A DNA stretch of 64,000 nucleotides from Planctomycetota bacterium (GCA_026692865.1 JAPLNI010000023.1:7552-71551), one strand, 5' to 3'; counted from the first letter of the stretch, positions 4,514 through 63,335 are shown. Notes: generated from the sequence alone by a model not told the origin. Program-made: numbers and translations.

Positions 4514-7500
4514 TCAGTTCCAATTCGCTAGTTCGGAACTCAAAAACCGCATTCGCGAGAGTAATCGTTCGCGGTAGACTTCACAAATCGCAGCCATCGC
4601 CATGACGAGCAGTCCTAGCGATAATCCACTCACCCATAGCATCTGCGGGTGATCGATTGCAGAGCGAGCGAGCATCGCAAGGAGGTCCGCGAACAAGAAC
4701 GCAATTCCAGTGAACATCAAAACTCGAACACGCAATCCGATCGCAATCAGTACAACAAGAACCGATAGCACCATCAGCGAAAACATATGCCACCAACTGC
4801 CTCCAAGAATATCGAAGACGGGTGAGACGAGAATGAATAAGGAACCGACGATTCGAATCGGTTTATGAGCCGACTGAGGTATCTCATGCTTCATCAGTTC
4901 AACCAATCCGAGAATCGAGATGCCGATTGGAGCCAAGTACAGTTGGAGATCCTCGAAACCCCACATTCGATTCAAGTTTGCAATCCCAATGTTTACCATG
5001 GTGATCGCTAACCAGACATGCCAGCGTCGGCCAGTCGTCCAGCCTTGATAGGCATGCGAAAACGCAGCGACAAAGATCGCCAATGCTGTCCACGGCATAT
5101 TTTTCGGTAGAAAGAATAGTGAAAAGACTCCAACACTAGTGACCAACAGGGTAAGCGTGAGGCCAACAACTAGCAAAGGTCTCGATGCGATTTGGAACGA
5201 CTCAGATTCCGTACAAATCTTACTCAGCCACTGCATCAGCAATCCGACTAAAACAGCAACTAACACTCCATATCCACTGTTTACGAATAGCCAACCATGG
5301 ACCAGCAAAATCAATGCACACACACCAACAATCTCCATGGCCAACCACACACCGACCTCGCTTCGCTCCCGAGTTGCGACTAAGAATTCCTGGACCGCCA
5401 TCGTGAGGGTCGCGAAAATCAATAGAACGACCGAGGTCACCGAGAGCTCAGCGACTGCGAAGAGACTTAGTAAGAGTGCGAACGAGCTTAGGCGAAGTAG
5501 CTCACTCCAAACAGCGTGACAGAGTGGATGGAACCGCAAGCCGAAACTTCGAATCAACACACTGTTCACTACCATCACGACCAATAAGCTGGGAATCTGA
5601 CGCGATACCGTGTCTTCTCCCCACAACAGCTGATTCGCGAGAGCATGAGCATCGATTCCGATCGCTGGAAGAATTGCCATCAATACAACTGCATTCGCCC
5701 AGATACATCCTAAAGTAAACCTTTTCGTTTCCACTTCAGGCTGGTAAAGCAAATAGAGCGATACTAACGATATCAAGCCTGTAATCTGAATCGGTATTGA
5801 AAACATACAAACGCTAAAGACACATAGAATCCCCAAAAAGGGACCTAGAACGCTTGGAACGTAAGTTGTCAGTTCACTTGACAGTTCACTCGTCGTCGCT
5901 TCATTTACCACATCGCTCTCTACTCGCAAAGCTTGTTCACATCGACGAGGAATGACCCCTGCGACAAACAACGTGATCGCCCAAATGAGTGCTGAGTAGC
6001 GAAGGTCTGAGGCTACATAGCCATTTGACTGTAGGAATGACGACACGAGTAAGGGTGATGCAACCACGAGAAGTGCTGTGACGGTGCGACTCTTGAGTAC
6101 ACCAATCGCAAACAGCATCCAAACCAGTACAACTATTCCGCTGGTGAGTAAGCCACTGTGATCCATTGCGAGACTCGCTTGGAGCAAAGCAACTCCATGG
6201 ACCGATAACATTCCGGCAATAAAAAGTGTCGCCAAGTCAGCAAGCGGGAGAAGCAACGCCATCCATGGGTTGGCGTTCGCCCTGGATGAAGAGTTGGTTT
6301 TAGATTCTATGTTGGCAACCGTCAGACCAAGTAATCTCCGTTCGTTGTTCCAGTCGATCGCAAGGGTGCGTCGAACTCCGATTACGGCTAAGTAACCAAA
6401 GATCGAAACGCTAACCGACACATAAGCGATCGCGTCAATCAGTTCGCTAAGACTCCAGTTCATCGCACACATCACACTTGCGATGACAACGAGCGTTACT
6501 AGTGAGAAAGCGAGGCCTGCTAGGTAGTGCCTCGTATCCCTTACGGTAATGAGTGTTGCAATGCCGCAAAGGAATGCTACGGTGTACTGAGGTGTTGTGA
6601 TGTCGTCGCCGAGACGACTTACCGACAGTCCAACCCAGATGCTTCCCAGAGCTAGCATGACTAGCATGCCCCAGCATCGACCCACAGAAACGTAAGTTCC
6701 ATCGCGCCAAGTTGGCCACGGAAGCCATTGACTGGTCGGCAACGGCACTCGTTCCAGCCATCGATCGACAGGAACGATGAGAAGCCCGCATCCGGCGATC
6801 CCTAAGCAAGTTCCGATATGAAAGATGTCGATCCAATTCCCAAGCATAGCGTTGATATAGGGAACGAGGAACGCTACGGCGATCGTCCCCGTAAGAAGAC
6901 TGAAGGCTGCGTAACGGCGATCTTGCCAGTTGATCGCATAGAATAGAAACAAAACACAGTGCACAATCGGGATAAGGAAGGCTGCCTTGAAATGAGTCAG
7001 AGACAGTGGCATCAGCAATAGCGTCAATCCGGTTGCGGCAACTTGGAGAGGTCTTGCAAAATGCGACTGCTTCCCAAGTAAACGACTCGCGACGGACCAT
7101 GCAAGTAACAAAGGTAGATAAGTGAGACCGTAGAACGCGTAAGGCAAGCGTTCCTCCGACAACGATTCCGCGGCAACGGTTATGACTTGCTTTGCAAAGG
7201 TCGAGACCAAGGTTGGAGCCACTTGATAGCAGATCGCCATGAGCACAATAGCCAGCCATGTGAACCCTGAACTGCGACTGTCACGTGCGGCGATCAACGC
7301 CAACACGGAAGCCAAAGCCGCAGTTGGCACGACGGCCTTCGTAGTCGGTCCAACCCAATGGAATCCATGGAACGAAACAGCGACTCCAGCTAACCCAATC
7401 ACTAAAGAAACGAAGGTAGGAATAACTATCGCGACTGGAATCGTCGTAATGAGTCCACCTGTACGAGCTCGAAAAACAGATGCGACTGTTCTTGCAGTGA

Positions 7501-8257
7501 GCATGATCGGAACGGCACATAGAACAAGCCCGAACCCAAGCCACTCGATATGTTCCATCCAATCTAACTTGGTTGCCAACAGCGCAAACATTTGCGAGCC
7601 AAGTAGAAGAATCGGCAAGAAACCGAATACCATTGGTTTGCGATACTGCTCGGCAAGCCAGAAGACATGGCGATTGACTTTGACGATGCCGATTGTACCA
7701 ACCGCCCATATCACCGCTCCGGCAACTAGGTTGCTATCTGCCATCACTGGCAAAGCACCTGCGATTGCGAGCGCTAGGTATGCGGCTTGAAAGGCTATTT
7801 GCCGGCCCCGCAGAAAGTGGCTCAAAACGCGACCAGAGATTACTGCCGCGAAAATCCCGCCACCAATCAGAAGCGGGACGAGAGAAGCAAAGTTGTTTGA
7901 GGCATTCGCGGAAAGCCATGGTAATGAAAAGAAGCTAATCGGTAGAAGTATAAGAGTCAGCATTTTCAAAACAGTCGACGTCGAACGCAAGCCTAATAGC
8001 TTGTCGCTCGCTTCGGCAAATCCATAGACAACACCGATATAGGCTAGGATCGAGAGAAACTTAAGGACCGTAGACCATTCGGCCCATTGCTGCACAACGA
8101 GCTTCAATGAAGAGACGGCGACAATCGCTGCGCCGACGAAAAGCATCCACTTGATATTCGACTCATGAAAGAATGCAGAGATGAATTTCTCAGCGAGCGA
8201 AGCCGGTCGCAATTGCGCGACTTCCGTTTCATCGTGGTCATTGGTTATTTGGTTCAT
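4514..8257 (-). CDS. giant polytopic inner-membrane protein (1247 aa, roughly 30-35 predicted TM helices), function unknown
   Basis: Long uninterrupted ORF, almost entirely hydrophobic helices separated by short Arg/Lys-containing loops. Ends 52 bp upstream of pspA on the same strand. Possibly a DUF2339-like family, not verifiable here. Confidence 0.8.
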   Translation of the reverse strand: MNQITNDHDETEVAQLRPASLAEKFISAFFHESNIKWMLFVGAAIVAVSSLKLVVQQWAEWSTVLKFLSILAYIGVVYGFAEASDKLLGLRSTSTVLKMLTLILLPISFFSLPWLSANASNNFASLVPLLIGGGIFAAVISGRVLSHFLRGRQIAFQAAYLALAIAGALPVMADSNLVAGAVIWAVGTIGIVKVNRHVFWLAEQYRKPMVFGFLPILLLGSQMFALLATKLDWMEHIEWLGFGLVLCAVPIMLTARTVASVFRARTGGLITTIPVAIVIPTFVSLVIGLAGVAVSFHGFHWVGPTTKAVVPTAALASVLALIAARDSRSSGFTWLAIVLMAICYQVAPTLVSTFAKQVITVAAESLSEERLPYAFYGLTYLPLLLAWSVASRLLGKQSHFARPLQVAATGLTLLLMPLSLTHFKAAFLIPIVHCVLFLFYAINWQDRRYAAFSLLTGTIAVAFLVPYINAMLGNWIDIFHIGTCLGIAGCGLLIVPVDRWLERVPLPTSQWLPWPTWRDGTYVSVGRCWGMLVMLALGSIWVGLSVSRLGDDITTPQYTVAFLCGIATLITVRDTRHYLAGLAFSLVTLVVIASVMCAMNWSLSELIDAIAYVSVSVSIFGYLAVIGVRRTLAIDWNNERRLLGLTVANIESKTNSSSRANANPWMALLLPLADLATLFIAGMLSVHGVALLQASLAMDHSGLLTSGIVVLVWMLFAIGVLKSRTVTALLVVASPLLVSSFLQSNGYVASDLRYSALIWAITLFVAGVIPRRCEQALRVESDVVNEATTSELSSELTTYVPSVLGPFLGILCVFSVCMFSIPIQITGLISLVSLYLLYQPEVETKRFTLGCIWANAVVLMAILPAIGIDAHALANQLLWGEDTVSRQIPSLLVVMVVNSVLIRSFGLRFHPLCHAVWSELLRLSSFALLLSLFAVAELSVTSVVLLIFATLTMAVQEFLVATRERSEVGVWLAMEIVGVCALILLVHGWLFVNSGYGVLVAVLVGLLMQWLSKICTESESFQIASRPLLVVGLTLTLLVTSVGVFSLFFLPKNMPWTALAIFVAAFSHAYQGWTTGRRWHVWLAITMVNIGIANLNRMWGFEDLQLYLAPIGISILGLVELMKHEIPQSAHKPIRIVGSLFILVSPVFDILGGSWWHMFSLMVLSVLVVLIAIGLRVRVLMFTGIAFLFADLLAMLARSAIDHPQMLWVSGLSLGLLVMAMAAICEVYRERLLSRMRFLSSELANWN

Positions 8258-8471
8258 CGCAGAGGTTCCCAGTAGCGAACGGTTTGGCCTTTTCCCGAGT
8301 CATTTCGGGATTCGCTTTACCTCTTTAACAAACGCCGTGCCGTCACGAATGGACCGCACAAATGCAATCGCAAACTATTTTCCTAAAAGCACTTGCGGCG
8401 TTTACGTTCGATTCCAAGAAAACAAGCAGATGCCAGAGATGCAGCGCGCAGACTGCGTTCAAGTGCATGTC

Positions 8472-9056
8472 TCAAGTAGCAGCGCATCGACGGAGCCAAA
8501 CGACATAACAAAACGATCTGACAATCGATTGCTGTCTTAAGATTCGATTCGCGGAGCGGGTAACGGGCATCCGATCGTGGATGCTTGCCATGAGCGAGTT
8601 GGGATTCGTTGTGATGATGGTAGTCGATTCGATCCAATACCCAGTTGGTTCTTTCCATTGCTCCCAGAGGCCTGCGAATGCAAAGGTGGATCGACTTCTC
8701 AGCGTGATCAGGAAAGGAATTTTTACTTTTTCGAACCTGGACCATTTATAGAATACATCTGCGATCACTAAACAACGCCGACGTTTAAAGGCTGTTCGAA
8801 ACGAAGGTTTTTCGGCGATGGTTTCAGCTCGAGCGTTTATCAGGCTGTTACCGATCTTCGCATCTTTAGCCCAAGACGGAATCAAACCCCATCGCATCCA
8901 AACTGGTTCACGCCCTTCCTTGCTTTGCCTAACTGCGAGTACCTGTTGCGTTGGAGCAATGTTCTATCGAACGGCGACATCGGTAGGAGGTCTTATCAAC
9001 TGGAATATGCGAACGAGCTCGCTCGAAGAAGTATGTAATGTATAACAACCGCAAAT
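8472..9056 (-). pseudogene. SOS-response-associated peptidase (SRAP/YedK, DUF159) pseudogene
   Basis: In-frame translation gives ICGCYTL...SSEL...PPTDVAVR*NIAPTQQVLAV...EPVWMRWGLIPSWAKD...LINARAETIAEKPSFRTAFK...FAFAGLWEQW...TTIITTNPN...IHDRMPV. This is collinear with YedK (MCGRY..RYNIAPTQ..WGYAPGWW..INARVET..HDRRP). The position of the essential Met1-Cys2 start is ATT (Ile). A TAG (8966..8964) replaces the conserved Tyr of RYNIAPTQ. The C-terminus after HDRMPV has lost similarity. Confidence 0.55.
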
Positions 9057-9123
9057 TCGATAGACTTGCTGCTTCAGGACTCATATAAGAAGAAAAGCAT
9101 CACGTCGACAATCACTTCATTGG

Positions 9124-9696
9124 TCAACGAATCTCATCAGATTCTAACAGAACTTCGTTAAGCAACCCGACCAATCCTATGTTCAGTGCATGCGTTCGAA
9201 TGACGTCTTGTTGTGTGCTATCGCAGTTACGAAAGATGCCACGAAAATCACGTCGACTTCGTTGGCTGCCTTTGTCAATCCAAATGAGTTTGGACAAGGC
9301 TGCATCTATGCGCGACACAACTGGCAAAAAGATTCCGTCAAACAATTCGAGCGATTGTGATCGTCCGAGTTCGCCCGGTATTAACTCACGCGGGTACACA
9401 TCCAGTTTCAAACACTCGGATTTATCGAGTAACTGAAATAGATCGTTTTCTTGAATTGCTTTTCGGACTACAGGCTCAGTGAACCAAAAATCCGATACCA
9501 CTAGTTGCTCAATTAGGTCATCGACGCGTTGCTTTGCTGTGGTAGGCGATACGACGATGTCGATGTCTTGTGTTAGTCGTGGCTCGCCATAAGCTGAACT
9601 TATTGACCCTCCTGTCAAATGAAAAGGGAGCTCAATTGCAGTGGCAATTTGAACGAACTTTTCAATCGTTCTTTGAAACGCTTCAACGGGAAACAT
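9124..9696 (-). CDS. nucleotidyltransferase-fold protein (AbiEii / minimal-NTase-like)
   Basis: 190 aa. Motif HLTGGSISSAYGEPRLTQDIDIVV equals the pol-beta-type NTase signature hG[GS]x9-13Dh[DE]h (AbiEii pattern GG[ST]A..Y....R.S.DID). Confidence 0.6.
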   Translation of the reverse strand: MFPVEAFQRTIEKFVQIATAIELPFHLTGGSISSAYGEPRLTQDIDIVVSPTTAKQRVDDLIEQLVVSDFWFTEPVVRKAIQENDLFQLLDKSECLKLDVYPRELIPGELGRSQSLELFDGIFLPVVSRIDAALSKLIWIDKGSQRSRRDFRGIFRNCDSTQQDVIRTHALNIGLVGLLNEVLLESDEIR

Positions 9697-9928
9697 GTTG
9701 AAGATATTCCTCTATGAGTCTGATCACGTCCGGCTCGTGCTCATAGAGTTTCAAGGCAACCTGCCACCTTACATGCTCGTCCGAAAGAGTCGGATTCGCA
9801 TTGCGAAATTGCCTAGCCATTTGCTGCCGAGTCCAAGCGAGCATCGCTGCGCTTCGTGCCATTTTGTCTGCCGGCGACATCGCGTCGATACGCTTTTGGT
9901 ATTCGAGTTCTACGTCCGTTACGATCAC
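9683..9928 (-). CDS. hypothetical 81-aa helical protein, upstream partner overlapping the NTase gene by 14 bp
   Basis: ORF plus operonic overlap with the NTase gene. Small charged alpha-helical protein. Confidence 0.4.
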   Translation of the reverse strand: MIVTDVELEYQKRIDAMSPADKMARSAAMLAWTRQQMARQFRNANPTLSDEHVRWQVALKLYEHEPDVIRLIEEYLQHVSR

Positions 9929-10160
9929 TATTTATCCTAGGTAGCGGGATCAATTAGATTGAAGTATACCCGATGCAGTCGCTATTGGTAGTTGATTTAC
10001 GGCTTGCTCTCTGTGTGCCGATCGTCCAGGTGTAAACGGTCTTTGTAGCGTGCGTCGAGTAGAAAGGCATCGCAAAATATCGTCAATAGAGTGTTGTGAA
10101 TTCAATTGGAGTCATCACATCCTATCCATTCTTCACGCGATCCGACATTGCAAAATCGCG

Positions 10161-10244
10161 AACGTTTTACGTGATGATAATTGCAGTCGCAGCAACCGCG
10201 GATTCAGTGAATTTGTTATCCGCTTCATCGAGCAGATTATCGTC
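10161..10244. repeat. dispersed repeat R2, copy a (~85 bp, ~85% identical to 17315..17400)
   Basis: Shared 27-bp identical core tgaatttgttatccgcttcatcgagca and flanking aattgcagt(c/t)gcagcaa(c/t)cgc. Confidence 0.8.
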
Positions 10245-10411
10245 TCTTTGTCGCCAAAGTTGGACATAAGGTCAGTCTCTCTGCTCGAAACAGCTGCCCT
10301 GGGTTGGTCTCGCTTTAAGCGAAAAGTCGTCTCTGTTTTGCGTTTGATTGGAGTCTGGCTCCCGCAACTGAATTGGGTGGTTACGAACAGTTTTCGACCC
10401 ACGTGTGAACA

Positions 10412-10447
10412 AAAAGGCTGGTGTTGTCATGACACCGGCCTTTTTTC
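10412..10447. terminator. putative bidirectional intrinsic terminator
   Basis: ggctggtgt-tgtcatg-acaccggcc (9-bp stem with one G.U) followed by ttttttcgttttt on the plus strand and preceded by aaaaa, giving a T-run on the minus strand too. ~390 bp downstream of the minus-strand NRAMP gene. Confidence 0.35.
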
Positions 10448-10512
10448 GTTTTTCCACCAGTCTTTTCGTTATCCGGCCGGTTTCTCGCGGCTCTCTCCCG
10501 GTCTCTGTTGGA

Positions 10513-10529
10513 CATAACCTGACGGTCAC
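10513..10529 (+). repeat. 17-bp exact copy (cataacctgacggtcac) of the anticodon-loop/variable-loop segment of the tRNA-Met fragment at 29787..29803
   Basis: Perfect 17-mer shared with the partial tRNA 19,274 bp downstream, same orientation. Flanks are unrelated to the tRNA. The chance expectation for a 17-mer in 64 kb is about 1e-5. Confidence 0.6.
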
Positions 10530-10537
10530 ACCCAAAA

Positions 10538-10569
10538 GCCATTTCGAGGCAAAGCCATTTCGAGGCAAA
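10538..10569. repeat. tandem duplication of 16-mer gccatttcgaggcaaa (x2)
   Basis: Directly visible in the sequence. Confidence 0.7.
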
Positions 10570-10649
10570 AAAGCCAATTTTGGCCCAAAGTCTCTCGACT
10601 CTCTGAAGGTCGAAAAATCCGGGTTAACATCAAGGTCTCTAATCGATCA

Positions 10650-10701
10650 TAACCCCACGGTTTTTCGTGCAGCTTGTTTTCTGGGTTATGAGGGTAGAGA
10701 C
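10650..10701. repeat. dispersed repeat R1, copy a (43 bp identical to 14173..14224, then tagagac)
   Basis: taaccccacggtttttcgtgcagcttgttttctgggttatgag. Contains an imperfect inverted repeat taacccca...tgggtta. In both copies it starts with TAA. Confidence 0.8.
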
Positions 10702-10726
10702 TTTTTGACGAAAAAAGAGTCGGCAC

Positions 10727-10795
10727 GTTGGGAGGGTGCCCTGTACGCGGCGAGTAGAACTCTCTCCGCGGAGGCGCCTGTTAAGTCGTATATAC
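10727..10795. repeat. dispersed repeat R4, copy a (~80% identical to 15213..15282)
   Basis: gttggga..cctgtacgcggcgagtagaactctctccgcggaggcgcctgttaagtcg versus gttgggtgg..cctgtaggcggcgagcagaaatccctccgcagagtcgcctgttatctcg. Confidence 0.7.
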
Positions 10796-10832
10796 CTTTG
10801 GTCGAAATATCGCGTCTGATCAAATACTGGAT

Positions 10833-12278
10833 CTACATCACTTGATCGCTAATCCAACTCACGGCCAATGCGATGATGCACGCAATGGTCAACGCTACCC
10901 CTGCCCAGCCCAAAATCGTTGCCACTCTGCCAATTTTCGCAGTCCCCACGACCTTGGGATCGCTTACCAAGATTTGCAGTGCCACAACATGGAAAGGCAG
11001 CAGGACGGCATTCACGACTTGGCTTAAGTAAATAAGCGGAATCAAAGACAGACCTGGAAGAGATACCACGCTTACGGCCGCCACCGTCAAACCTACGAAG
11101 GCCGCATAGAAATACTGAAAATGGTGTGAATCTAGATCAAGCGAAGCGGGAGCTCCAATCCCTTCTGCAATGGAGTAGGCTGTCGCCAGCGGAACGATGG
11201 CCGCCGCCAACAGCGAAGCCCCTAGTAGGCCCGCACCGAATAGAACCGTTGCAAAAGAACCCGCCAAAGGTTGCAGCGCGATCGCAGCGTCTCTCGCATC
11301 TTCGATTGGAATCCCAGCTTGATGGAGTGTTGCGGCGCACGCTACAGCAATCGAAAGACCGATGACGCCGGTCAGTAGCGAGCCGATTATGACATCGACG
11401 CGTTCCCATCGCAGGTCGGCAACTGTGATTTTCTTATCGACTGCGTATGACTGAATAAACGCTAGTCCCCAAGGAGCCAAAGTTGTTCCAAGGGTCGCGG
11501 TGATAGCGATCCAACCAGCGTTGTTCAGTGGCATACTTGGGATCAATGAATGATGAAGTACGAGTGACCAATCGGGTCCGGCCAAAATCCCGTCGACTAT
11601 ATACAACGCCAAGGAAGACGAAATAACGAGCAACACGACTTCCACTCGATGAAAAGAACCAAGCACCACGACTAGCGAGATCAGCAAGCCGGCAATTGGC
11701 GTGCTAAGCCATGAAGGAATACCAACAAGAGAAGCTGCCGCCGAGATGCCTGCATATTCAGCGCAGATCGTTCCGAAGTTCGCTAACAACAGGCCGATAA
11801 CAGCGAAATACCCCATTCGCACTCCCCACCGCTGGCGGATGATGGCGACGAAACCTTTGCCACTCGCCGCACCGATGCGGACCGCCAACAAATGGAAATA
11901 GACGAGCAAGATCGTCGACGCTGGAATGATCCAAAGAAGTCGATAGCCATGATCGGTGCCCAGCAATGAATAGGTCGTTATACCAGCAGGATCATCATCC
12001 GAGAGTCCCGCCAGCATCCCAGGCCCAAGAACTGCCAACAACGATGCAATCGCCCCAGCACCAGCACTACGATACTGATTGAATTTGCGAGCTATACCAC
12101 GTCGTTGGTGAGCAACCCCGTGAAGCGGTGCATGCGCGTGTCGCTTTTTTGCGGCATGATACAAAGTGTCGTGGAGACCACGAAGACGGCCAATTGCTTG
12201 ATTGTTCTTGTAGGATTTAACGCTCATGGATCTCCATACTACGCTTCGAGTGGGAAGGCTTAATGTAGCGTAACACAT
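10833..12278 (-). CDS. mntH: NRAMP-family divalent metal (Mn2+/Fe2+) transporter
   Basis: 481-aa ORF; the true start is probably an internal Met. Signature LGPGMLAGLSDDDPAGITTYS (GPG...DPGN-type TM1 motif), 11-12 hydrophobic helices. Confidence 0.85.
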   Translation of the reverse strand: MCYATLSLPTRSVVWRSMSVKSYKNNQAIGRLRGLHDTLYHAAKKRHAHAPLHGVAHQRRGIARKFNQYRSAGAGAIASLLAVLGPGMLAGLSDDDPAGITTYSLLGTDHGYRLLWIIPASTILLVYFHLLAVRIGAASGKGFVAIIRQRWGVRMGYFAVIGLLLANFGTICAEYAGISAAASLVGIPSWLSTPIAGLLISLVVVLGSFHRVEVVLLVISSSLALYIVDGILAGPDWSLVLHHSLIPSMPLNNAGWIAITATLGTTLAPWGLAFIQSYAVDKKITVADLRWERVDVIIGSLLTGVIGLSIAVACAATLHQAGIPIEDARDAAIALQPLAGSFATVLFGAGLLGASLLAAAIVPLATAYSIAEGIGAPASLDLDSHHFQYFYAAFVGLTVAAVSVVSLPGLSLIPLIYLSQVVNAVLLPFHVVALQILVSDPKVVGTAKIGRVATILGWAGVALTIACIIALAVSWISDQVM

Positions 12279-12635
12279 TGCCAGTTCGATGATTAAATTG
12301 CACAGGAATGGAAGTATCTTCGTTCCTCACATTTCTGCCGTGATTCAATGCAATCATGCGCAGGCGTGCGATCAAGCGAGCTAACCTCCTAAGACGCATT
12401 CAGGCTTTAATGGTAGTGATGGATTAATTTGAGCAAATCTGTCGATTTCTTTTTGTGCCTAGTCAACTCTGATATAACGTAATTTTTTCTGAGATAATCT
12501 CGGTTGAATGAAAAGTTCTTTTGACTTGAGTCATCAACACCCAAACCACGTCTACACCACCACAAGAAGTTTCGTTCGCACAGGATCGGAAACACATGAG
12601 CGATATCATTGCTACCACTCCGCGAAGACATTTCC

Positions 12636-12700
12636 AGAGTCGCCAGATTTTATTCAAATGACTCCCGTCCAAACCCAGGACTTACATGGATTTTTCGGCG
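12636..12700. repeat. dispersed repeat R3, copy a: conserved leader plus first codons (agagtcgccagattttattcaaATGactccc...ttacatggatt)
   Basis: Second copy at 15460..15526, 31-bp identical core. In copy a it carries the start codon of the DUF1877-like gene. Confidence 0.8.
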
Positions 12701-13308
12701 TCACCGACGCTTTCCCGGAGGCTCAGATTATGAGTATGTTGTGCAGCCTGTATCGAATCACCCCCAAGCAGGTTGAGAAGCTGAAAGCCTTCCCAGACGC
12801 TGTTGGCGAGTTGGTTGGCTTATTGGCGACACCACCGAAGAGCAGTTTCCTGTCAAAACTCTTTGGAAAATCCGCGAAACAATCTCCTCCTTCAGCGCGG
12901 ATGTTCGAGGCTATTGTCGAAGCCGACACATTCGAACTCAATCAAGCGTGGCACATATTGCACTTTCTGTTTTCTGGCGTTAACGCGGAAGCCCCGTGGC
13001 CCAACGGGTTCCTGATGTCCGGTGGCGAGGAGATCGGGCCTGACCTCGGCTATGGGCCAATTCGTCTCCTCGTCCCCGAGCGTTCGCACGCTGTCGCTAC
13101 TTTCCTCGAAGCTCAATCGTTCGGACGTATGAACGCAGCTTACGTTGCTAGTGAAATTGAGGCTGCTGAAATCTATTGGCAAGCCTCCGACGATGGATCC
13201 GAGCGGCTGCGGGAAGTGGAAGAGCTGTGGGGTACGGTCAAAGAACTCCATGTCTTCTTTGAGCAAACGGTCCGCACAGGCAATGGAATTCTCATCAACA
13301 TCTACTAA
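12658..13308 (+). CDS. DUF1877 (YfbM-like) family protein
   Basis: Start taken at ATG 12658 inside repeat R3a. NQAWHILHFLFSGVN...EIGPDLGYGPIRLL resembles the YfbM core DKRWDFLHFGLTGTS. Confidence 0.55.
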   Translation: MTPVQTQDLHGFFGVTDAFPEAQIMSMLCSLYRITPKQVEKLKAFPDAVGELVGLLATPPKSSFLSKLFGKSAKQSPPSARMFEAIVEADTFELNQAWHILHFLFSGVNAEAPWPNGFLMSGGEEIGPDLGYGPIRLLVPERSHAVATFLEAQSFGRMNAAYVASEIEAAEIYWQASDDGSERLREVEELWGTVKELHVFFEQTVRTGNGILINIY

Positions 13309-13737
13309 AGTGACGCCCAACCCTTAGTTCCAGGGTACCGGCAAGCTGCGCTTGCCGGTACCCTACGGGCTTCGCCCTTCGGCGTCCCCTGAACTCAAAC
13401 GTTCTGCAATACAAAATGAATCGCTTCATCAACTGGATTTTTTGCCCGAGCGAAATGAAGAACGTTAAAGTTCCTGGTGAGACAATTCGTACTGTTGATG
13501 AATCACGAATAATTTCGTTGATGTCGCTTGAGAAACAACTTGAACGGCTTGCGGATTTGGGACTTCGGATGAATCCCTGCGTAACGGTCGACGATCTGCT
13601 CTACTCACATAAACGCATAAACGCATCGATTCCGAAAGTGACCCATTTGAAGCGATCTTTCTTATGTTCGGAAACGACGTAGAACGAGAACATTGGGGAA
13701 GGCAGTTCTGCGAAAGAGCGTGGACATTCGACACTGA

Positions 13738-14175
13738 GTGTATTTACAGCACCGGAAGTTACGTGCGAGTTGCAGAGAATTTTGTCGAGCTGCGGGTATG
13801 CCGACTCTATTCAAAAATATTGAGGATTTCGTTGATTTGGAAAAAGGTAAAGCATGGCTAAGATACTCGGTCGACGGCAACGAGCGATTTTATGCAATAC
13901 CGGTCGATAATGATTGGGCTGACCCCGCTACTGTAGGTTCGATCATGAAAGATATTGAAAGAAACGGCAATCGCTTTTACGGAAAACTTGACGGACAAGC
14001 AACAACGTGGTTTTACTTGAATCACGAAACGGCCAAAGCGCTCAACCGAAACAAACAGCGACTACCAAATACGCAGTTTTACTTCGGTATTGGTAGTCGT
14101 AGCGGTGAGAGGGTAGAACGAGTACTCGCGCGAAAAAGTCCGGAATGCTATGACAATCTACCTACATGGCTGTAA
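13738..14175 (+). CDS. hypothetical protein (145 aa); possibly the C-terminal part of a gene split over three frames starting at 13416
   Basis: ORFs 13416..13682, 13664..13861 and 13738..14175 lie in successive overlapping frames and all read protein-like. Stop codon TAA 14173..14175 is the first 3 bases of repeat R1b. Confidence 0.4.
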   Translation: MYLQHRKLRASCREFCRAAGMPTLFKNIEDFVDLEKGKAWLRYSVDGNERFYAIPVDNDWADPATVGSIMKDIERNGNRFYGKLDGQATTWFYLNHETAKALNRNKQRLPNTQFYFGIGSRSGERVERVLARKSPECYDNLPTWL

Positions 14176-14224
14176 CCCCACGGTTTTTCGTGCAGCTTGT
14201 TTTCTGGGTTATGAGCTTAGAGAC
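14173..14224. repeat. dispersed repeat R1, copy b
   Basis: See R1 copy a. Confidence 0.8.
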
Positions 14225-14400
14225 CCCTCTGTGGAGTTATTACGAAGGCTCTAGAGATAAGTTGAAATGGAAAATCAGATTGGCCAGCTTGTGGCGGATC
14301 GCTATCGAGATCCTCGCAAAGTTCCAGTGCTCAAGGTGTCACCGGATTTGTGAAACTTGCTGTGAAGGTGAGGAACGCAAAAAGCTAAAGTAATGCCCCC

Positions 14401-15054
14401 ATGAATGGCTACACCAATACTCAAAATTGGTGTTTCGACTCAAAAGCTGCGATTGAAAAATTATTTTTTCATTTAGAGGCTAAGACTTGCCTACAGTATC
14501 GATGTAAAACCGACGATAACCAAAATCATTCCGGCCAGTCGCTTGCCATTCTTCATTCATCCATTCCCGCCTTTGGAGCCCTCCTCATGTTTGAATCCAT
14601 TTTATTTCGAAAAAAAACGGTCGATGCGGGGGCGAAGCTCAGGCGGTTGATGGACTTATCGATTGCTCGAAGTGACATCGAGGACGACAAAAGAGTATAT
14701 GATCGATACAAGAGAGCATTGCCTGTCTTGATCACGCCCTGGCGTGGAAGTCAAACCAGCAATGCTGATTCGCATATCGGTATTTCTCGAGACATGAGCG
14801 ATCATGGCGTTCGACTCTTTTTTCTCAAAGAGCCGACGGGACAAGAATTTCTGCTTTCGTTTTTCTTACAAAGGGAACGCAACGTTCTGGAGTGCTTTCA
14901 TTTTAAGGCCACCGTGCGAAACTACATGAAATTTGCACCCGACATTTATTCCGTTGGCATGAACATTTTAGAGCATCTGCAAGATGGCGAGGTCGAGCCT
15001 GGCGTCCAAGCGTTGTTACATCTCATCGGCCAGGATAGCGAAGGGCTTGGATAG
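14401..15054 (+). CDS. PilZ-like (putative c-di-GMP-binding) domain protein; alternative start ATG 14587
   Basis: RVYDR...(34 aa)...DMSDHG fits the PilZ RxxxR / [DN]xSxxG motif pair and spacing. Located in the ~1-kb segment that separates R1b from R4b. Confidence 0.4.
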   Translation: MNGYTNTQNWCFDSKAAIEKLFFHLEAKTCLQYRCKTDDNQNHSGQSLAILHSSIPAFGALLMFESILFRKKTVDAGAKLRRLMDLSIARSDIEDDKRVYDRYKRALPVLITPWRGSQTSNADSHIGISRDMSDHGVRLFFLKEPTGQEFLLSFFLQRERNVLECFHFKATVRNYMKFAPDIYSVGMNILEHLQDGEVEPGVQALLHLIGQDSEGLG

Positions 15055-15212
15055 ACGCTTTGCTTAGTCGTTCCGCGATTTGCAAATTGCGATTAAATTT
15101 GAGCCGAGGCGATACCCAACCAAATCTAAAACTCGGCTAGCTTTTCAGGCTCATGGGTAGGTTTCGGTCTGCTGCACGCCTCAATGTGAGATCGGAAAGC
15201 TGGGAGAACTGA

Positions 15213-15282
15213 GTTGGGTGGTTATCCTGTAGGCGGCGAGCAGAAATCCCTCCGCAGAGTCGCCTGTTATCTCGGATAACTA
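15213..15282. repeat. dispersed repeat R4, copy b
   Basis: See R4 copy a. In the shared frame a TAC in copy a is TAG in copy b. Confidence 0.7.
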
Positions 15283-15459
15283 CGCTCGGTAGGCGCAGTG
15301 AGGTAGGTAGGTTTCCGAGTGTTTGTGTCAAAGAAGCAACGCATGGTATTGAACTTGCCGAGGTCAAGAGCGAGAATTTTCATAGTTGATGTGTCCTTCG
15401 GGTTTGGGGTTGGAATGAATGTGACTCCCTGTGTTTCCGCACAGAGATGATCACGGGTC

Positions 15460-15526
15460 AGAGTCGCCAGATTTTATTCAAATGACTCCCACCCCAAGCC
15501 CATGAATTACATGGATTCTTTCGGCC
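15460..15526. repeat. dispersed repeat R3, copy b (decayed: 1-nt insertion frameshifts the shared N-terminal codons)
   Basis: tcgccagattttattcaaatgactccc then accccaagcccatgaattacatggatt. Copy a reads MTPVQTQDLHGFFG; copy b reads MTPTPSP* because of one extra base. Confidence 0.8.
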
Positions 15527-15559
15527 TTCAAGACGAGAATCAGCAATTAAAGTCCACCC

Positions 15560-15988
15560 ATGACATCCAATCCTTTCCTGCATGTTCGCTCTGCAAAGTT
15601 TCGGGTTCTTCCGGGCGAGGATGTTGAACTCGTGAATGAGGGCATGTACGGCAAATCGCTCGCACTGTACCTGCAGGTGAAATTGGCAGAGAACGGTTAC
15701 AAGACTCCGTGTGTTGTTTGCGAAGACTGGGGATGGTGGCTGGAAGTAAAGAGACTGGATCTTACATGTGGGATCGGCGTCTATGGTATGCAAATCGATG
15801 ATACCGATGATCTTGATCTTTGCGTGACTGTACTCACACCCAAAGGCAAGAAATGGAATTGGGCCAAACTTCGATCAATTGACACTTCCTCCGAGGTTGA
15901 GAAGTTGCATGATACTATTCGAAGCATTTTCACGGATGATTTGGACATCACGATCGTCTGTGAATCCCTCGATTTTCCGTTAGAATGA
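15560..15988 (+). CDS. hypothetical protein (142 aa)
   Basis: ORF immediately downstream of R3b; no recognisable family. Confidence 0.4.
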   Translation: MTSNPFLHVRSAKFRVLPGEDVELVNEGMYGKSLALYLQVKLAENGYKTPCVVCEDWGWWLEVKRLDLTCGIGVYGMQIDDTDDLDLCVTVLTPKGKKWNWAKLRSIDTSSEVEKLHDTIRSIFTDDLDITIVCESLDFPLE

Positions 15989-16100
15989 GCATCGGATTAC
16001 ACACGGAATTCGGACGAACCAACCATTGGGCCGGTCGACCGCGTTTGACTTTAGAAACTTTACTTTCGGCCACTGGATGAACGGTGCCGATGTTTAAACA

Positions 16101-16529
16101 ATGAATATGCGGGGACTATCGATAGGCGTTGGAATACCACTAGCTTTGGCTATCGTTTGCGCCGTTGGTCTCAAGTTTGTACGCCCGGATTTGTTTCCGC
16201 TCGAATGGGTGCTCCCCGCTACTTGTACGTTTTTCGCACAGTTCGGACTTCTCGCCCTGATTTTGATGCGACGAGGCAAACGCACTGACGAGAAGCAGAT
16301 AAAGTTGCTTCTAGATGAATCAAAGTCCAGGCAGAGCGCAGCGTCGTATTGGTTGGGAGATTTCGCTATTTTCAGCGTTTTCCTCGCACTCGGTGTAGTC
16401 GCTGGGACAATTTCCGGGGGCGTATGGTGGGCGGCTGGAGGAAATACCATTCGATCGTTGTCGGAAGCACTTTTAATGGGCGCCTTCTTTGGTGGCGTCG
16501 CGATGTTAATCTTATTTGGCGGCGTATAA
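16101..16529 (+). CDS. small integral membrane protein (4 predicted TM helices)
   Basis: The plus-strand ORF is strongly hydrophobic and helix-like (GVGIPLALAIVCAVGL..., FFGGVAMLILFGGV). The overlapping minus-strand ORF 16094..16549 is Pro/Arg/Ser-rich shadow-like. Confidence 0.45.
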   Translation: MNMRGLSIGVGIPLALAIVCAVGLKFVRPDLFPLEWVLPATCTFFAQFGLLALILMRRGKRTDEKQIKLLLDESKSRQSAASYWLGDFAIFSVFLALGVVAGTISGGVWWAAGGNTIRSLSEALLMGAFFGGVAMLILFGGV

Positions 16530-16636
16530 GAAAACGTCCCGCATAACAAATCTAGGATTAGCGACGGTCTTAAATTCGGGCAATATTGTTTGGTTCGCTC
16601 GATGAAAATTCGTAATGACTGTCCATTTTTTTGGGG

Positions 16637-17245
16637 TCACACGATACTGCGTTGTTCCTGATTTTGGTGAGATTGCTCAACGGGTCCATGCACTACTACA
16701 CGAGTTGCATTGGGTCCGACTCGAAGCATGAGTCTGAGCAGATTCAGATATGACGTGTGCGTGGCTGCAAATTGTCCGCAGCGATCATGATTCTTGATAG
16801 ATTCGCAAGCGACTGGGTTTGTATCATTTGTGCAAGGAACGAAAATCCGAAGCGTTGGATACGCCGTTAGTAGATTGATGGCGGTTTCGATGTGAACGGA
16901 GCTTTCGAGCGTGTATGACGCGTGAGGACCAGCGCCCCAGATGGCAACGAGGTCACGCGAGCGTTTGTCCCACGGATACGGTAACTCCAATGGATCAGTT
17001 CGTTGCCAACGAACTTCCGGTAGTCGTTCTTTCGCTCTCGCAACGAAATGATAGATGTAGCTTTGCATTACCGGATTTTCAACCCAAGACTCGTTCTGAT
17101 GCAAGTTCACGTTGAAGTCGGCTGGTAGGAACTGGATTGCACTGCGATGATCTTGCCACAGTTGATTGACTATCAAACATTCATCGCAACCATGATCTTG
17201 CTTGCCTCCGGTGGGTAAAAGATGGCTGATGATTTCGGCAAACAT
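16637..17245 (-). CDS. hypothetical protein (202 aa)
   Basis: ORF with ordinary composition; no family recognised. Confidence 0.45.
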   Translation of the reverse strand: MFAEIISHLLPTGGKQDHGCDECLIVNQLWQDHRSAIQFLPADFNVNLHQNESWVENPVMQSYIYHFVARAKERLPEVRWQRTDPLELPYPWDKRSRDLVAIWGAGPHASYTLESSVHIETAINLLTAYPTLRIFVPCTNDTNPVACESIKNHDRCGQFAATHTSYLNLLRLMLRVGPNATRVVVHGPVEQSHQNQEQRSIV

Positions 17246-17314
17246 GCTGAGCAGAGGGCAAATACATTCTGGAGTTTTCTGACGAGTTTGCGTCAGGTGG
17301 GGTAAAATTTCTAT

Positions 17315-17400
17315 AGTCGTTTATACGTAATAATAATTGCAGTTGCAGCAATCGCAGCTTCAATGAATTTGTTATCCGCTTCATCGAGCAAATTCGGTCG
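17315..17400. repeat. dispersed repeat R2, copy b
   Basis: See R2 copy a. Confidence 0.8.
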
Positions 17401-17445
17401 CAAAGAAAATGGAGTTGGCTTCAGTGGGGCGACAAATTGGTAAAT

Positions 17446-17607
17446 GTGTTTCCCGCGATTGTTCTCGATACTAATGTTCTAGTCGCAGGAGCATGTCACC
17501 ATGAGCGGAGCCTAGCATATCAACTACAGATGGCTATCCTTGATCGCCCAATTCCGCTGATGCTGAAAGAAGAGCTTACAGTTTCCGCCGAGCGATTTCC
17601 GGTCTGA
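17446..17607 (+). pseudogene. PIN-domain N-terminal remnant (VFPAIVLDTNVLVAGA...), truncated
   Basis: The frame that is open from 17317 through R2b reads ...NVFPAIVLDTNVLVAGACHH..., the characteristic PIN start (hhhDTNVhh). Only ~54 codons remain before the TGA at 17605..17607. No ATG start. Confidence 0.3.
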
Positions 17608-17610
17608 GGC

Positions 17611-28975: not shown

Positions 28976-29760
28976 GTTGCTAAGACCAATGACCACGCAA
29001 ATTGATTGGCGCGATCAAAGAAAGATTTGGAAAAAGATCAAATCGAGGTAGACTTCAAAATCAATTTGCATCAAACACAGCTTGGGCAAGCAATCCTATC
29101 CAGGAAGTACAGATGCGTAGAAGCTCTCTAATACTAACTCGTTTTTACTTCATTCGCTATCGCCTGGTCCAGCTTGACAGAACCCAGTCGTTTGGCCTCT
29201 TGAAGCTCTCTTGCGAATACACGCAGCTCGTCAACGATATCTAAACGGCGCATTATAGCGTCCGGAGACATATCGCAGCTGACGCCGCGTGATTGAGATT
29301 TCGTAGACGGCGTTCCCTGGTTCGGTGCATTAGCCATGAACAACCACCGCCAGTCCGCCGCATAGCGCATAGTCAATATCTGACTTGTCAAAGCATGAGG
29401 CGATCCGAAGCAGTTCTTCCTTTAATTTCATATCGGATCACTTTCGATCAATACTTCGCGAACCTTACCGGGGCAGCCGTATCTTATACCTCAGTTAGTC
29501 AACAAAATGAACAAGAGGGAGTAGAGCAAACGAAATAGATCAAGCATAGGACTTCATACTACAGGAATGTTCGCCTGGGAGCGGACTCGGTCTCCAAAGC
29601 CTCTGTCTTGGAAATCTAGGTACAGTGTTCGAATCACTGCGTTCCTGCTTTTTAAGCAAGCGTTCGGTCGATGTGGTTCCGACGGCGCGGCGGTCTCTGC
29701 TCGTTTGCGGTTGGTTCGTCGTGTTCCGTGCACGGGCTCTGGAAACGATATCGATTGAAG

Positions 29761-29829
29761 TAGCTCAGTGGATAGAGCATCAGGCTCATAACCTGACGGT
29801 CACGGGTTCGACTCCCGTCTGACGCACCC
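29761..29829 (+). tRNA. tRNA-Met (anticodon CAT; Ile2/fMet not excluded) lacking a base-paired 5' acceptor strand (partial gene)
   Basis: D-arm TA-GCTC-AGTGGATA-GAGC. Anticodon arm TCAGG-CTCATAA-CCTGA. Variable CGGTC. T-arm ACGGG-TTCGACT-CCCGT. 3' acceptor CTGACGC-A-CCC. The 7 nt upstream (attgaag) cannot pair with ctgacgc; the required gcgtcag is absent. Confidence 0.6.
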
Positions 29830-30218
29830 CCTTGAACAGGGAAACTGTTGGCTAAAAACCAACTCCAGGCGCGAAAGCGTCCACCAAGAGCTGGCGGGCA
29901 ACGGTTGTTTGATTTGATCAGCCTTTTTTGGCGAGAGAAGCACGACAAGAATTCGAACGCTCTAACGAGCGAACGAAGTCTGACTCGGACGACTCGACGC
30001 CAATCGGGCAGCAGACTAACGAGCTTTGTAGTTGAACTGCAGGCTGTTGAAACGTGTGATCGATACGAGGGATCGAGGTGATCCATACCAAGCGGTTGGG
30101 TTGCATCGAGAAATCAGTAGACATCCCATGGCTCAGCAGCCAAGGTACTTCTCCGCATCGTAGGTTTGTGATCAGCGAACAGCTTGTTGCCCAAAAGCGT
30201 TTCTCTAGCTATGTCGTT

Positions 30219-49885: not shown

Positions 49886-50554
49886 ATGACCGAACAAACT
49901 ACTTCAAAGACCATTTTCTTGTGGACGACTTTAACCATAATCGCTGTACTTACATTTGCTAAGTCGGCACAGCTTGGGAGCTCTCAGCCTCCAAGTCAAT
50001 CAGGTGACAATACTAAACCAACAACCTTAACAGGAGACAACGTGACGACTGAAAAAGCAATTCTGGCAGGTGGATGTTTTTGGGGGATGGAAGATCTATT
50101 CCGTAAGCAACCCGGTGTTGTTTCGACTCGAGTCGGATACTCAGGGGGTGACGTGAAAAATGCAAATTATCGCAATCACGGAACGCATGCTGAAGCGATC
50201 GAAGTCGTTTACGATCCCAGCAAGACTGACTTCCGAAAGCTTCTGGAATTCTTCTTCCAGATCCACGATCCAACTACAAAAAATCGTCAAGGTAACGACC
50301 GTGGAACCTCGTACCGCTCGGCGATCTATTACACTAGCGACCAACAAAAGCAAATCGCACTTGACACAATCGAGGACGTTAACGCATCCGATTTATGGCC
50401 CGGCAAAGTCGTGACAGAAGTCGAACCAGTTAGTGATTTTTGGGAAGCGGAGCCAGAACATCAAGACTACCTAGCACGAAACCCAGGTGGTTATACTTGT
50501 CACTTTCCGCGTAAAGACTGGAAGTTACCCCAACGAGCAAAAGTCGACAAATAA
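49886..50554 (+). CDS. msrA: peptide-methionine (S)-S-oxide reductase
   Basis: [11 protein letters not shown] active-site motif and overall collinearity with MsrA; N-terminal hydrophobic anchor/signal. Confidence 0.95.
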
Positions 50555-50838
50555 TAGGCGCATCGCGGCTCGATATGCAAAAAGACGAGCGGCTAATAGT
50601 GTGGTGGCGACTCTTCTTAAAGACAACGCTGCTGAGTGCAAAGACATTCTGGCGTTTTCTGCCAAATTTGCGTTAGTTGGGGAAGTTTTTGTCATCAATT
50701 ACTCGACGAACCTCCGTATGACGCAAGTCGTTGTCTTGGGTATGGTTCGAATAGGCCAGCCGCTGGTTATGCAAACATTATTTTTCAGTGCATTCAGTGC
50801 AATCCGTGAAAAGTCATCGCAACTGCTAGGTCGCCTTC

Positions 50839-62143: not shown

Positions 62144-62801
62144 CAAAGGCATATTCATCACCGGTTCCGATACAGAGATCGGAAAAACTTTTGTAGCATG
62201 TGCGATTGTCCGCTCTTTAGTGGAAGCGTCCATACAAGTCGGTGTCTATAAACCGGTCGCAAGTGGCCTGAGCGATTTGGAGTCCAGCGACGCACATCAA
62301 TTGTGGATCGCTGCTGGTAAGCCTGGCGAATCGCTTGCACGAGTCTGCCCGCAATCGTTTACGCAACCACTCGCGCCGATGATTGCAGCGGAATCTGAAA
62401 ACAAAATAATTGACAAGCAGAAAATCATCAGCGGCTATGACTATTGGCGTGAATGTTCGGAGTTCGTCGTTGTCGAAGGTGCTGGTGGTTTGCTCTCGCC
62501 GATTGCTCATCGACTCAGCAATGCTGATCTTGCAGCACAGCTTGAATTACCGATTGTCGTAGTGGTTCCTAATCGGCTGGGTTGCGTCAATCAAGCGATG
62601 CTCGTCCTGGAGGTTGCTCGCGCTCGCAAGCTTCCAGTCGTTGCCATCGTTTTGAATCAAACGCAAAACCATACCGCCGATCTTTCAGTTCAAACCAACT
62701 TCGAACTGCTTCGCGCAACGATGAATGAGTCGGATTTTTCCGCGATTGCTGTTCACTGCTTCGCATACCGACAGCAATCCTTAAGGCTATTCGATGAATA
62801 G
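62124..62801 (+). CDS. bioD: dethiobiotin synthetase
   Basis: P-loop GSDTEIGKT, YKPVASG, VVVEGAGGLLSP, collinear with E. coli BioD. Start ATG 62124 overlaps the previous gene by 20 bp. Confidence 0.85.
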   Translation: MRSPKNSKGIFITGSDTEIGKTFVACAIVRSLVEASIQVGVYKPVASGLSDLESSDAHQLWIAAGKPGESLARVCPQSFTQPLAPMIAAESENKIIDKQKIISGYDYWRECSEFVVVEGAGGLLSPIAHRLSNADLAAQLELPIVVVVPNRLGCVNQAMLVLEVARARKLPVVAIVLNQTQNHTADLSVQTNFELLRATMNESDFSAIAVHCFAYRQQSLRLFDE

Positions 62802-63335
62802 TTGCAGAGCCAACATCGCAATAAAGTATTGAGCCCAAAGCGTTAGCCGAGTTCAAAAGATTAACTAACCGCTTGCGCAGGACTGCTAAATACTCGGGGT
62901 TGCCCCCAGGATTCGATTGCGCTGGTTTTGTACCTAACAGGCATCTCGTTCGTCCAATCTCACGTTATAGCGAGTCTTCAATTTACGCGCGCAAAAGCGA
63001 CGGATCGGGCTCGTCCCGTTACGTCGCAAAGGTTTGGTGCGCTACTCACCAGCGCCGCGCGCGCGTCCCGCGACGGGTGGGCTTGCCACACCACGTCGCA
63101 AAGGTTTGGCGGGCTACCTCGCAACTTAGCCCGCCAAAGCTTTGCGGTCGGCACCTTTTCGTTCGTCGGGCCCGAGGCCCTCGACCGCGAGACCGCGCGT
63201 GGGGGCACACGTTGTAGCACACCAAACCTATTGCGAAACATGGGCACAAGGCCCAGTTTCGCGTCGAGGGTGAATCACATTCGCAAAGGAACAAAAGCAA
63301 CATGTCGAAACGTCATGTCAATACCGAACGTTTAG

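Follow-up and report, generated by a model that had tools for sequence, protein, structure and literature searches.

Small RNA genes, including the tmRNA gene ssrA and some small RNA (sRNA) genes, serve as attachment sites for genomic islands and prophages. In the additive flexible genomic islands described from Alteromonas, a direct repeat of part of the targeted RNA gene, located downstream of the inserted cassettes, is a hallmark (PMC4898812). We examined a locus that resembles these islands in a 64,000-nt stretch of DNA (hereafter the window; JAPLNI010000023.1:7552-71551 of GCA_026692865.1) from a Pirellula-like planctomycete. Between about 9.9 and 17.6 kb of the window, four short repeats (R1 to R4) each occur twice among small open reading frames (ORFs), and one copy of R1 is part of a conserved non-coding element (NCE) just downstream of a tRNA-fMet gene remnant. 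A sequence-only reading of this DNA had described the interval as a repeat-delimited mosaic of small modules. That observation was largely right, and its intuition of a mosaic and hotspot was right; however, on the reading that we favour, none of R1 to R4 is a dedicated recombination site. We consider it probable that a flexible genomic islet is decaying here at a tRNA/NCE hotspot, with two diverged versions of one locus standing in tandem.

As in the additive flexible islands (PMC4898812), the hotspot in the window lies beside a tRNA-Met-type gene, its cassettes vary between strains and species, toxin-antitoxin and apparently horizontally acquired genes are present, and a partial direct repeat of the non-coding target (R1b) is found 3.5 kb downstream. 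Unlike in those islands, the repeated target is an unannotated element downstream of the tRNA and not the tRNA itself, no integrase was found among the scanned ORFs, the junctions show degradation, and several of the modules have become pseudogenes. Integron cassette arrays and CALIN elements (PMC4889954) share with this locus the small co-oriented ORFs of unknown function, toxin-antitoxin genes and short inter-ORF repeats. However, attC sites with R''/R' cores and hairpins at the cassette ends and an intI gene were not found here, and the repeats do not occur at each boundary. Collinear, direct, two-copy markers are also expected of a tandem segmental duplication with decay, although the similarity here is limited to sharp-edged patches of 50-95 nt with unrelated spacers. 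Dispersed REP/MITE-like repeats have many copies per genome; each repeat here has two in the 64 kb of the window, and an R1 20-mer occurs once per species genome. Similar to the tmRNA and sRNA genes used as attachment sites, the NCE is single-copy, conserved and strongly folding, and gene order breaks at its duplicated 3' end; in contrast to them, it falls outside all 4227 Rfam families.

Anatomy of the repeat pairs

When 8-20 kb was searched for repeats and 9-18.5 kb was compared with the whole window by sensitive self-BLAST, the result was exactly the four direct pairs listed earlier:

10163-10238 and 17318-17394, direct pair: R2, 88% identical over 77 nt
10650-10701 and 14173-14224, direct pair: R1 core, 50 of 52 positions identical
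10727-10792 and 15213-15278, direct pair: R4, 80% identical
12635-12699 and 15459-15525, direct pair: R3, 90% identical

The pairs are real, and each has two copies in the 64 kb window, where no third copy of any of them was found. The similarity of R3 could be prolonged by eye to about 12716 and 15542, and a weaker extension of R1 reaches back to 10611 and 14131 in an anchored alignment (only 8 of 2000 shuffles do as well). R1, R4 and R3 keep the same order and orientation in both copy sets, a on the left and b on the right. R1 and R4 were measured to be 25 nt apart in set a and 988 nt apart in set b, in agreement with the earlier estimates of ~25 and ~990 bp, and the identity of R1 stops at ...tagagac in both copies as had been reported. 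No residual similarity was found in the spacers between the repeats of the two sets, and no hidden paralogy was found between their genes. The interval had also been called AT-richer than its flanks, which was not borne out: its GC content is unremarkable, at 48.9% compared with 50.0% in the window overall, and a value this low or lower is seen in 26% of windows of equal size.

We then assigned the copies of R2, R3 and R4 to the following features:

10120-10262, minus: R2a region, C-terminal PIN_3 pseudogene remnant with an in-frame stop (translation ..LLDEADNKFTESAVAATAIIIT*NVRDF..; PIN_3 positions 88-115, E=6.7e-4)
17318-17394, minus: R2b, second C-terminal PIN_3 fragment (PIN_3 profile positions 82-112, E=9e-5)
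17437-17607, plus (opposite to R2b): N-terminal PIN_3 fragment (PIN_3 profile positions 2-42, E=6.6e-4)
12635-12716, plus: R3a, most likely the 5' leader of a DUF1877 gene (coding start at 12730 from 192-aa homologues)
15459-15542, plus: R3b, same leader, ~18 nt upstream of an unrelated 142-aa ORF (15560-15988)
10727-10792, plus: R4a, intergenic patch 41 nt beyond the Nramp gene stop, 80% identical to R4b
15213-15278, plus: R4b, 80% identical to R4a

R2b had been taken to be fused to a PIN remnant. It was noted that R2 itself is the PIN remnant, as the minus-strand translations of both copies match PIN_3 (PF13470) at profile positions 82-115. Because they are fragments, their scores fall below the whole-domain cut-off; when the N-terminal fragment was artificially joined to R2b, the product scored 40.7 bits against a cut-off of 27. 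That N-terminal fragment is opposite in strand to the adjoining R2b, which suggests a local inversion or deletion at this point. R3 had been credited with a start codon and ~15 codons. However, the DUF1877 homologues are 192 aa long and start at window position 12730, so R3 is most likely a 5' leader, ending about 13-18 nt before the start codons of two unrelated genes. With R2 a piece of a pseudogene and R3 most likely a leader, neither behaves as a junction or 3'-end element. For R4, the mismatches showed no codon-position bias (counted by eye), no coding signal and no significant shared fold were found, and no match was present in the loci examined from other species.

R2, R3 and R4 were seen only at the two loci of the window and in near-identical strains, whereas R1 is conserved across species, but as a portion of the larger NCE. 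Confinement of the repeats to two loci, which had been named as the outcome that would speak for simple duplication and decay, therefore holds for R2, R3 and R4 and fails for R1. Separately, a repeat family of 30-50 nt with the core CACCCGAGGCTAGCGCCTACGGCTCAGG occurs at 1981-2122 and 60728-63361, close to either end of the window, in several copies of both direct and inverted orientation; this family looks like a true dispersed repeat, unlike R1 to R4.

A conserved non-coding element with unoccupied sites in relatives

The left end of the interval and the site at which the backbone of the locus resumes are composed of the following features. Loci and contigs from relatives are numbered L001-L019.

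10347-10362, plus: tRNA-fMet stub, the last ~16 nt of the gene, of which the window retains only TCTGGCTCCCGCAAC
10411-10445, unstranded: bidirectional terminator-like hairpin (16-pair stem and T-run) between the tRNA stub and the NCE
About 10460-10714, unstranded: NCE, ~260 nt, with 79-86% identity to single copies in L005-L008, L011 and L013
10650-10701, within the NCE: R1a, the 3' part of the NCE, its last 52 nt
14131-14224, plus: R1b, partial copy of the last ~95 nt of the NCE
14280-14393, plus: Zn-ribbon gene fragment, 5'-truncated and frameshifted, with 84-90% identity to L003, L007, L008 and L012

We looked for the R1 20-mer CACGGTTTTTCGTGCAGCTT in JGI metagenomes and in one genome per species. 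It was found once each in four planctomycete metagenome-assembled genomes (MAGs; L005-L008, one Planctomycetaceae and three Pirellula sp.) and additionally in four metagenome contigs (L011-L014). Matches in a Zixibacteria MAG and a Dysgonamonadaceae MAG were set aside as chance, their flanks having no similarity. For all planctomycete matches, the 120-300 nt upstream resemble set a of the window and not set b, and the 20-mer invariably lies within a complete NCE. R1 had been viewed as a 3'-end or junction element; instead, R1a forms the tail of a conserved element present in single copy, of which R1b is a lone partial copy. The NCE, which is conserved in five lineages besides that of the window, is 79-86% identical between species, compared to 72% (DNA) for the neighbouring 202-aa ORF. 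A coding explanation was rejected, since translated matches fall in several frames and the alignment contains 1-nt indels, and the NCE is accordingly non-coding. A spurious ORF across it, used as a protein-database query, returned two proteins and zero new loci, and no match to the NCE was found on plasmids, phages or viral contigs.

The partial copy was recovered by nhmmer, which aligned 14132-14226 to NCE profile positions 158-248 (E=4.5e-15). Its 52-nt core (14173-14224) is 96% identical, while the preceding 42 nt are only about 60% identical, and the lineage-specific GTTTTCTGGG state is present both in R1b and in the NCE of the window itself. That R1 starts exactly at a TAA stop, as had been remarked, proved incidental: the TAA is part of the NCE motif CATAACCC, and R1b appears to start at a stop codon because a frameshifted pseudogene has lost its own stop and reads through a hairpin (14059-14099) into R1b.

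We sought to characterize the structure of the NCE. It folds far better than shuffled sequence on both strands, with z-scores of -5.0 for the plus strand and, for the L008 copy, -6.8 at -92 kcal/mol for the minus strand. In the alignment, 84-86% of cells are paired on either strand, and the 5-8 pairs with double changes are mostly contributed by one divergent sequence; the eight NCE sequences are too alike for covariation to be convincing. Counts of G-T against A-C in the shared helices gave no strand signal (13 vs 7). Searches of the window, L005, L006, L008, L011 and L013 with Rfam 15 (4227 families) placed the NCE in no family, the best matches in the window search being weak chance matches to the terminator hairpin. 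R1 and R4 were rejected as stand-alone structured elements, with z-scores of -0.7 to +0.7 apart from -2.4 for the plus strand of R4b, which R4a does not share.

Read directly from the sequence, the NCE is built of nested inverted copies of a unit GTCTCT-N5-7-CATAACC. A tRNA-Met-like fragment at 29759-29830 shares its anticodon loop, 3' anticodon stem and variable loop with one of these units; the match spans 18 nt in L008 and L011 and, in the window, 17 nt (10513-10529 = 29787-29803). The fragment itself, on the plus strand, is tRNA-Met(CAT)-like in its D, anticodon and T arms, lacks a matching acceptor stem, and has the 17-18 nt CATAACCTGACGGTCAC in common with the NCE. Rfam aligned it to model positions 6-65 only and ARAGORN made no call; it may be an att-type remnant or a tRNA-like element. 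It was also noted that the window's NCE carries a 15-16-nt tandem duplication at 10535-10566 (AAAGCCATTTCGAGGC twice), which is absent from all other copies, including the 96%-identical L003.

The relatives show what the site looks like without the extra modules. In L003, a strain ~96% identical over 9033-10714, similarity to the window stops right after 10714, and an intact 43-aa Zn-ribbon gene starts ~200 nt beyond the NCE. In L007, L008 and L012 the Zn-ribbon gene lies ~550 nt after the NCE, and in L012 a DUF1648 gene comes next, then the homologue of the 202-aa ORF of the window, with much shorter fillers. The shared backbone of the relatives is therefore the NCE, the small Zn-ribbon gene and the 202-aa ORF. 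The site is unoccupied in L003, L007, L008 and L012, where the Zn-ribbon gene follows the NCE without the segment of ~3.5 kb (R4a, Nramp, R3a-DUF1877, pseudogene and R1b) that separates the NCE from the Zn-ribbon fragment in the window. The filler between the Zn-ribbon gene and the 202-aa ORF is also longer in the window than in the relatives. On the other side, L011 carries an intact initiator-type tRNA-Met(CAT) at 2784-2858, followed by a trailer, the terminator hairpin and the NCE; the window retains this trailer and hairpin, and the hairpin is conserved in L003, L006, L008 and L011. ARAGORN detected only a tRNA-Thr in the window.

Gene content around the NCE differs among the relatives as well. 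In L013, housekeeping genes flank it on one side and a PIN gene and a Roc-COR-TIR protein on the other, while in L012 the flank is an array of small co-oriented ORFs, one of them barstar-like. Because both flanks of the NCE vary between species, the locus is an insertion hotspot. The content of modules differs among related strains and species, which bears out the description of the region as a modular, recombination-prone mosaic.

Several further observations concern these loci. The L013 genes (7557-10826) encode a 1089-aa LRR-Roc-COR-TIR protein and the PIN protein immediately right of the NCE, and the hotspot seems to collect defence-like and toxin-antitoxin genes. In the Pirellula MAG locus L006, a large serine recombinase (Resolvase and Recombinase domains, 505 aa) and a ParB-like gene at 124-2562 lie 4.7 kb left of the NCE, which suggests an integrative element ending near the tRNA/NCE hotspot. 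In L008, positions 5245-5315, ~0.9 kb left of the NCE, match RF00029, the Rfam model of the Group II catalytic intron (39.7 bits; gathering score 40). A patch of ~65 nt in the window (16029-16095), just ahead of the 142-aa membrane ORF, is 78% identical to L012 5245-5317. The L012 patch, which precedes a seemingly unrelated membrane ORF, is on the opposite side of the NCE and inverted relative to it.

The function of the NCE was considered in light of these features. We put forward, tentatively, that it may be an undescribed functional element of Pirellula-like planctomycetes. It could be a gene for a structured RNA, convergent with tRNA-fMet, or else a recombinase target with multiple sites and a mimic of the tRNA-Met anticodon region. 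Its 3' end would then act as an insertion hotspot, as in tRNA and tmRNA genes, with R1b as a footprint.

Modules, breakpoints and recombination machinery

The genes and modules of the interval and of its left flank were as follows:

9124-9696, minus: AbiEii-like nucleotidyltransferase toxin gene (PF08843, E=6e-5)
9683-9928, minus: 81-aa partner ORF overlapping the AbiEii-like gene
10833-12278, minus: Nramp-family divalent metal transporter gene (PF01566, E=1e-68)
12730-13308, plus: DUF1877/YfbM-family gene (PF08974, E=1e-34)
13416-14070, plus: twice-frameshifted pseudogene, with earlier 88-aa and 145-aa ORFs as its pieces
14369-15197, plus: "PilZ-like" module, homology block with L018/L019, 91% identical
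15560-15988, plus: 142-aa ORF, no family match
16101-16529, plus: 142-aa membrane ORF, no family match
16637-17245, minus: 202-aa ORF, backbone gene also in L012, no family match

The module that had been called PilZ-like had been read as the indel between R1 and R4. Its gene is most likely 14587-15054 (155 aa), because the homologues are 155-157 aa. One homologue, 58% identical, is found among core genes (L017), and another, 90% identical, is found downstream of an msrA paralogue (L018/L019), where the block shared with the window comprises 14369-15197 only. The left end of the module abuts the Zn-ribbon fragment, whose homology runs to 14370, and its right end lies 16 nt before R4b. As the block ends at 14369 and 15197, away from R1 and R4, these repeats do not delimit the module. 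The identity of the protein also found no backing in profile searches: no Pfam match, including PilZ (PF07238), was obtained even at E<=10, and NCBIfam and PDB-sequence searches gave none. Across 8 homologues, R..DR..R and D-M-(S/C)-D-x-G are nearly invariant, which amounts to an RxxxR...DxSxxG-like motif only; RxxxR with (D/N)xSxxG is the PilZ signature for cyclic di-GMP binding. The AlphaFold model, with a mean pLDDT of 47.9, was too uncertain to be used in a fold search.

A fifth two-copy intergenic patch, R5, is found at 17251-17323 and 50631-50701 (75% identical). The copy at 50631-50701 lies just downstream of msrA (49886-50554), and the relative of the PilZ-like module in L018/L019 lies downstream of an msrA paralogue; this hints at a former link between the segments. 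Assemblies from the same population break at R3b and inside R5b, with contigs L015 and L016 breaking exactly at R3b, which confirms the repeats independently.

Among the other modules, the DUF1877 protein has 87% amino-acid identity to a protein of Chitinivorax sp. B (name per NCBI/UniRef) and 76% to a protein from an NCBI-labelled Betaproteobacteria MAG, one of a group of matches at ~70-78%. The identity of 87% to a betaproteobacterial homologue is far above expectation for a planctomycete gene and points to recent transfer between phyla, and the gene was probably acquired horizontally. The interval had been said to hold mostly short, same-strand ORFs. This stands in part, but the ORFs at 13416-13682 and 13738-14175 are pieces of one twice-frameshifted gene. 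A homologue of 215 aa (P0074) aligns to it in frames +3/+2/+1 at 13491-13616, 13574-13783 and 13780-14046, and the hairpin at 14059-14099, with 19-nt arms, marks its native end. The AbiEii-like gene and its partner were found together on metagenome contigs L001-L004 with 96-100% identity. PADLOC and PHROGs gave no match for the small ORFs, and exact-protein look-up returned nothing for several window ORFs, probably through differing start codons. The left edge of the islet holds a further truncated gene, which encodes an SOS-response-associated peptidase (SRAP; 8472-8897, minus) and matches profile positions 58-170 of 214, with the first ~57 positions missing.

We searched for recombination machinery by Pfam scans of the ORFs of the interval and of the larger ORFs in 1-31 kb (150 aa or more outside the interval). 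No integrase or transposase domain was found among these ORFs, no integrase was found in 10715-14224 or nearby, and no IntI-type tyrosine recombinase was detected. The large serine recombinase of L006, across the NCE from this segment, was the sole recombinase encountered. For attC sites, we ran our own scan for RYYYAAC...GTTRRRY cores closing an imperfect hairpin of 50-150 nt. Under strict criteria one candidate was obtained (15114-15219) where 0.64 would be expected, and the 3' arm of this candidate lacks conservation in L018. The relaxed scan returned 7 candidates compared to 4.5 in shuffles, mostly inside ORFs, with the best energy density within the shuffle range. The earlier statement that recognisable integron attC sites are missing is in line with these chance-level scans, which showed no array, and together with the negative integrase scans they led us to reject an integron reading, as far as these scans reach.

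Proposed history and competing explanations

The history that we consider probable would begin with a hotspot anchored on the tRNA-fMet gene, here a 16-nt stub, and on the palindromic NCE of ~260 nt just downstream of it. A first version of the locus (R4a, Nramp, R3a-DUF1877 and the 215-aa-type gene) would occupy the space between the NCE and R1b, after which the native neighbour, the Zn-ribbon gene that is now a fragment, would resume. The second version, with R4b, R3b and further features, would come next, the PilZ-like and other modules having been spliced into it at sharp non-homologous breakpoints. R1, R4 and R3 would be the only surviving pieces common to both versions, with R2 as a pair of PIN_3 pseudogene fragments. 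The tandem join may have arisen by recombination in or near the 52-nt R1 segment, whether homologous or site-specific, and deletions, a local inversion and module replacements would have followed. The collinear and co-oriented arrangement of R1, R4 and R3 in both sets argues that the events were linked and not independent. Signs of decay include the frameshifted 215-aa-type gene, the three PIN_3 fragments, the truncated SRAP gene and the truncated Zn-ribbon gene.

Some features weigh against this history. At the right junction, the 13 nt TTTTTGACGAAAA found after R1a, and after the NCE in relatives, are missing from R1b; an additional deletion and a filler of 55 nt must therefore be invoked there. 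The drop from 96% in the R1b core to ~60% in the 42 nt upstream is not predicted by a plain recent duplication, and R2 needs a separate event, because R2a lies left of R1a while R2b lies right of R3b. The scanned ORFs of 1-31 kb contain no integrase or transposase domain, and the comparison draws on the 64 kb window alone for the source genome and on related contigs that are mostly 1-2 kb.

Three other explanations were weighed. In the one that treats the 52-nt R1 as an att identity core, an element with Nramp, DUF1877 and the 215-aa-type gene entered the 3' end of the NCE by site-specific integration, leaving R1a as attL and R1b as attR in the manner known from tRNA and tmRNA genes, and its integrase was later lost. 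A 52-nt block of identity between arms that are unrelated or ~60% similar is a classical att signature, the site is empty in relatives, the tRNA-fMet stub adjoins the NCE, and the NCE has both the 17-18-nt tRNA-Met match and repeated CATAACC units, the latter resembling recombinase-binding sites. The large serine recombinase and ParB-like gene 4.7 kb left of the NCE in L006 also fit, and there is a precedent in the Alteromonas islands (PMC4898812). However, no integrase lies within or beside the 3.5 kb segment, the putative attR is without the 13 nt common to attL and the empty sites, and the duplication of R4 and R3 in the same order is left unexplained. A single event was seen, with no second genome carrying a different R1-bounded insert. 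We regard this integration as unlikely. A plain tandem duplication of the R1-R4-R3 segment, followed by neutral decay and a few indels, would account for the collinear, direct copies and for the lineage-specific base state that R1b shares with the resident NCE. It is harder to reconcile with patches of 80-96% identity amid spacers in which similarity is undetectable, with the leap of R1b from ~60% to 96% identity at one position, and with the location of the Zn-ribbon gene, the native neighbour of the NCE, inside the second copy instead of after it. We judge it quite unlikely.

The last explanation, towards which the sequence-only reading leaned, would have small ORF modules shuffled by a cassette system, integron-like or new, with R1 to R4 as its recombination sites. 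In its favour are the small, mostly same-strand ORFs of unknown function, toxin-antitoxin genes included. Modules occur in other contexts elsewhere, R3 is equally spaced upstream of two unrelated genes, and the leader patch at 16029-16095 matching L012 is comparable. Yet the module breakpoints lie away from the repeats, which also counts against the repeat-delimited cassettes first envisaged, and each repeat has two copies only. In addition, there is no attC array, the lone candidate at 15114-15219 being at chance level with a 3' arm not conserved in L018, and no IntI-like gene was present among the ORFs scanned. A cassette system is, in our estimation, highly improbable.

Under the history of two tandem versions at a tRNA/NCE hotspot, the mosaic is an ordinary example of tRNA-adjacent islets gaining, duplicating and losing modules, and the locus cautions against taking short repeats that occur in pairs among small ORFs for recombination sites by default. 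The mosaic itself adds one more example to a known kind of locus; the sole feature that may be new is the NCE. It is also the more useful outcome, being conserved above the level of a neighbouring coding gene, having a tRNA-Met-like core, and marking breaks in gene order in several species. If the NCE is an RNA gene or a recombinase target, it would offer a handle on how accessory genes enter planctomycete genomes, a process that is poorly understood in this phylum.

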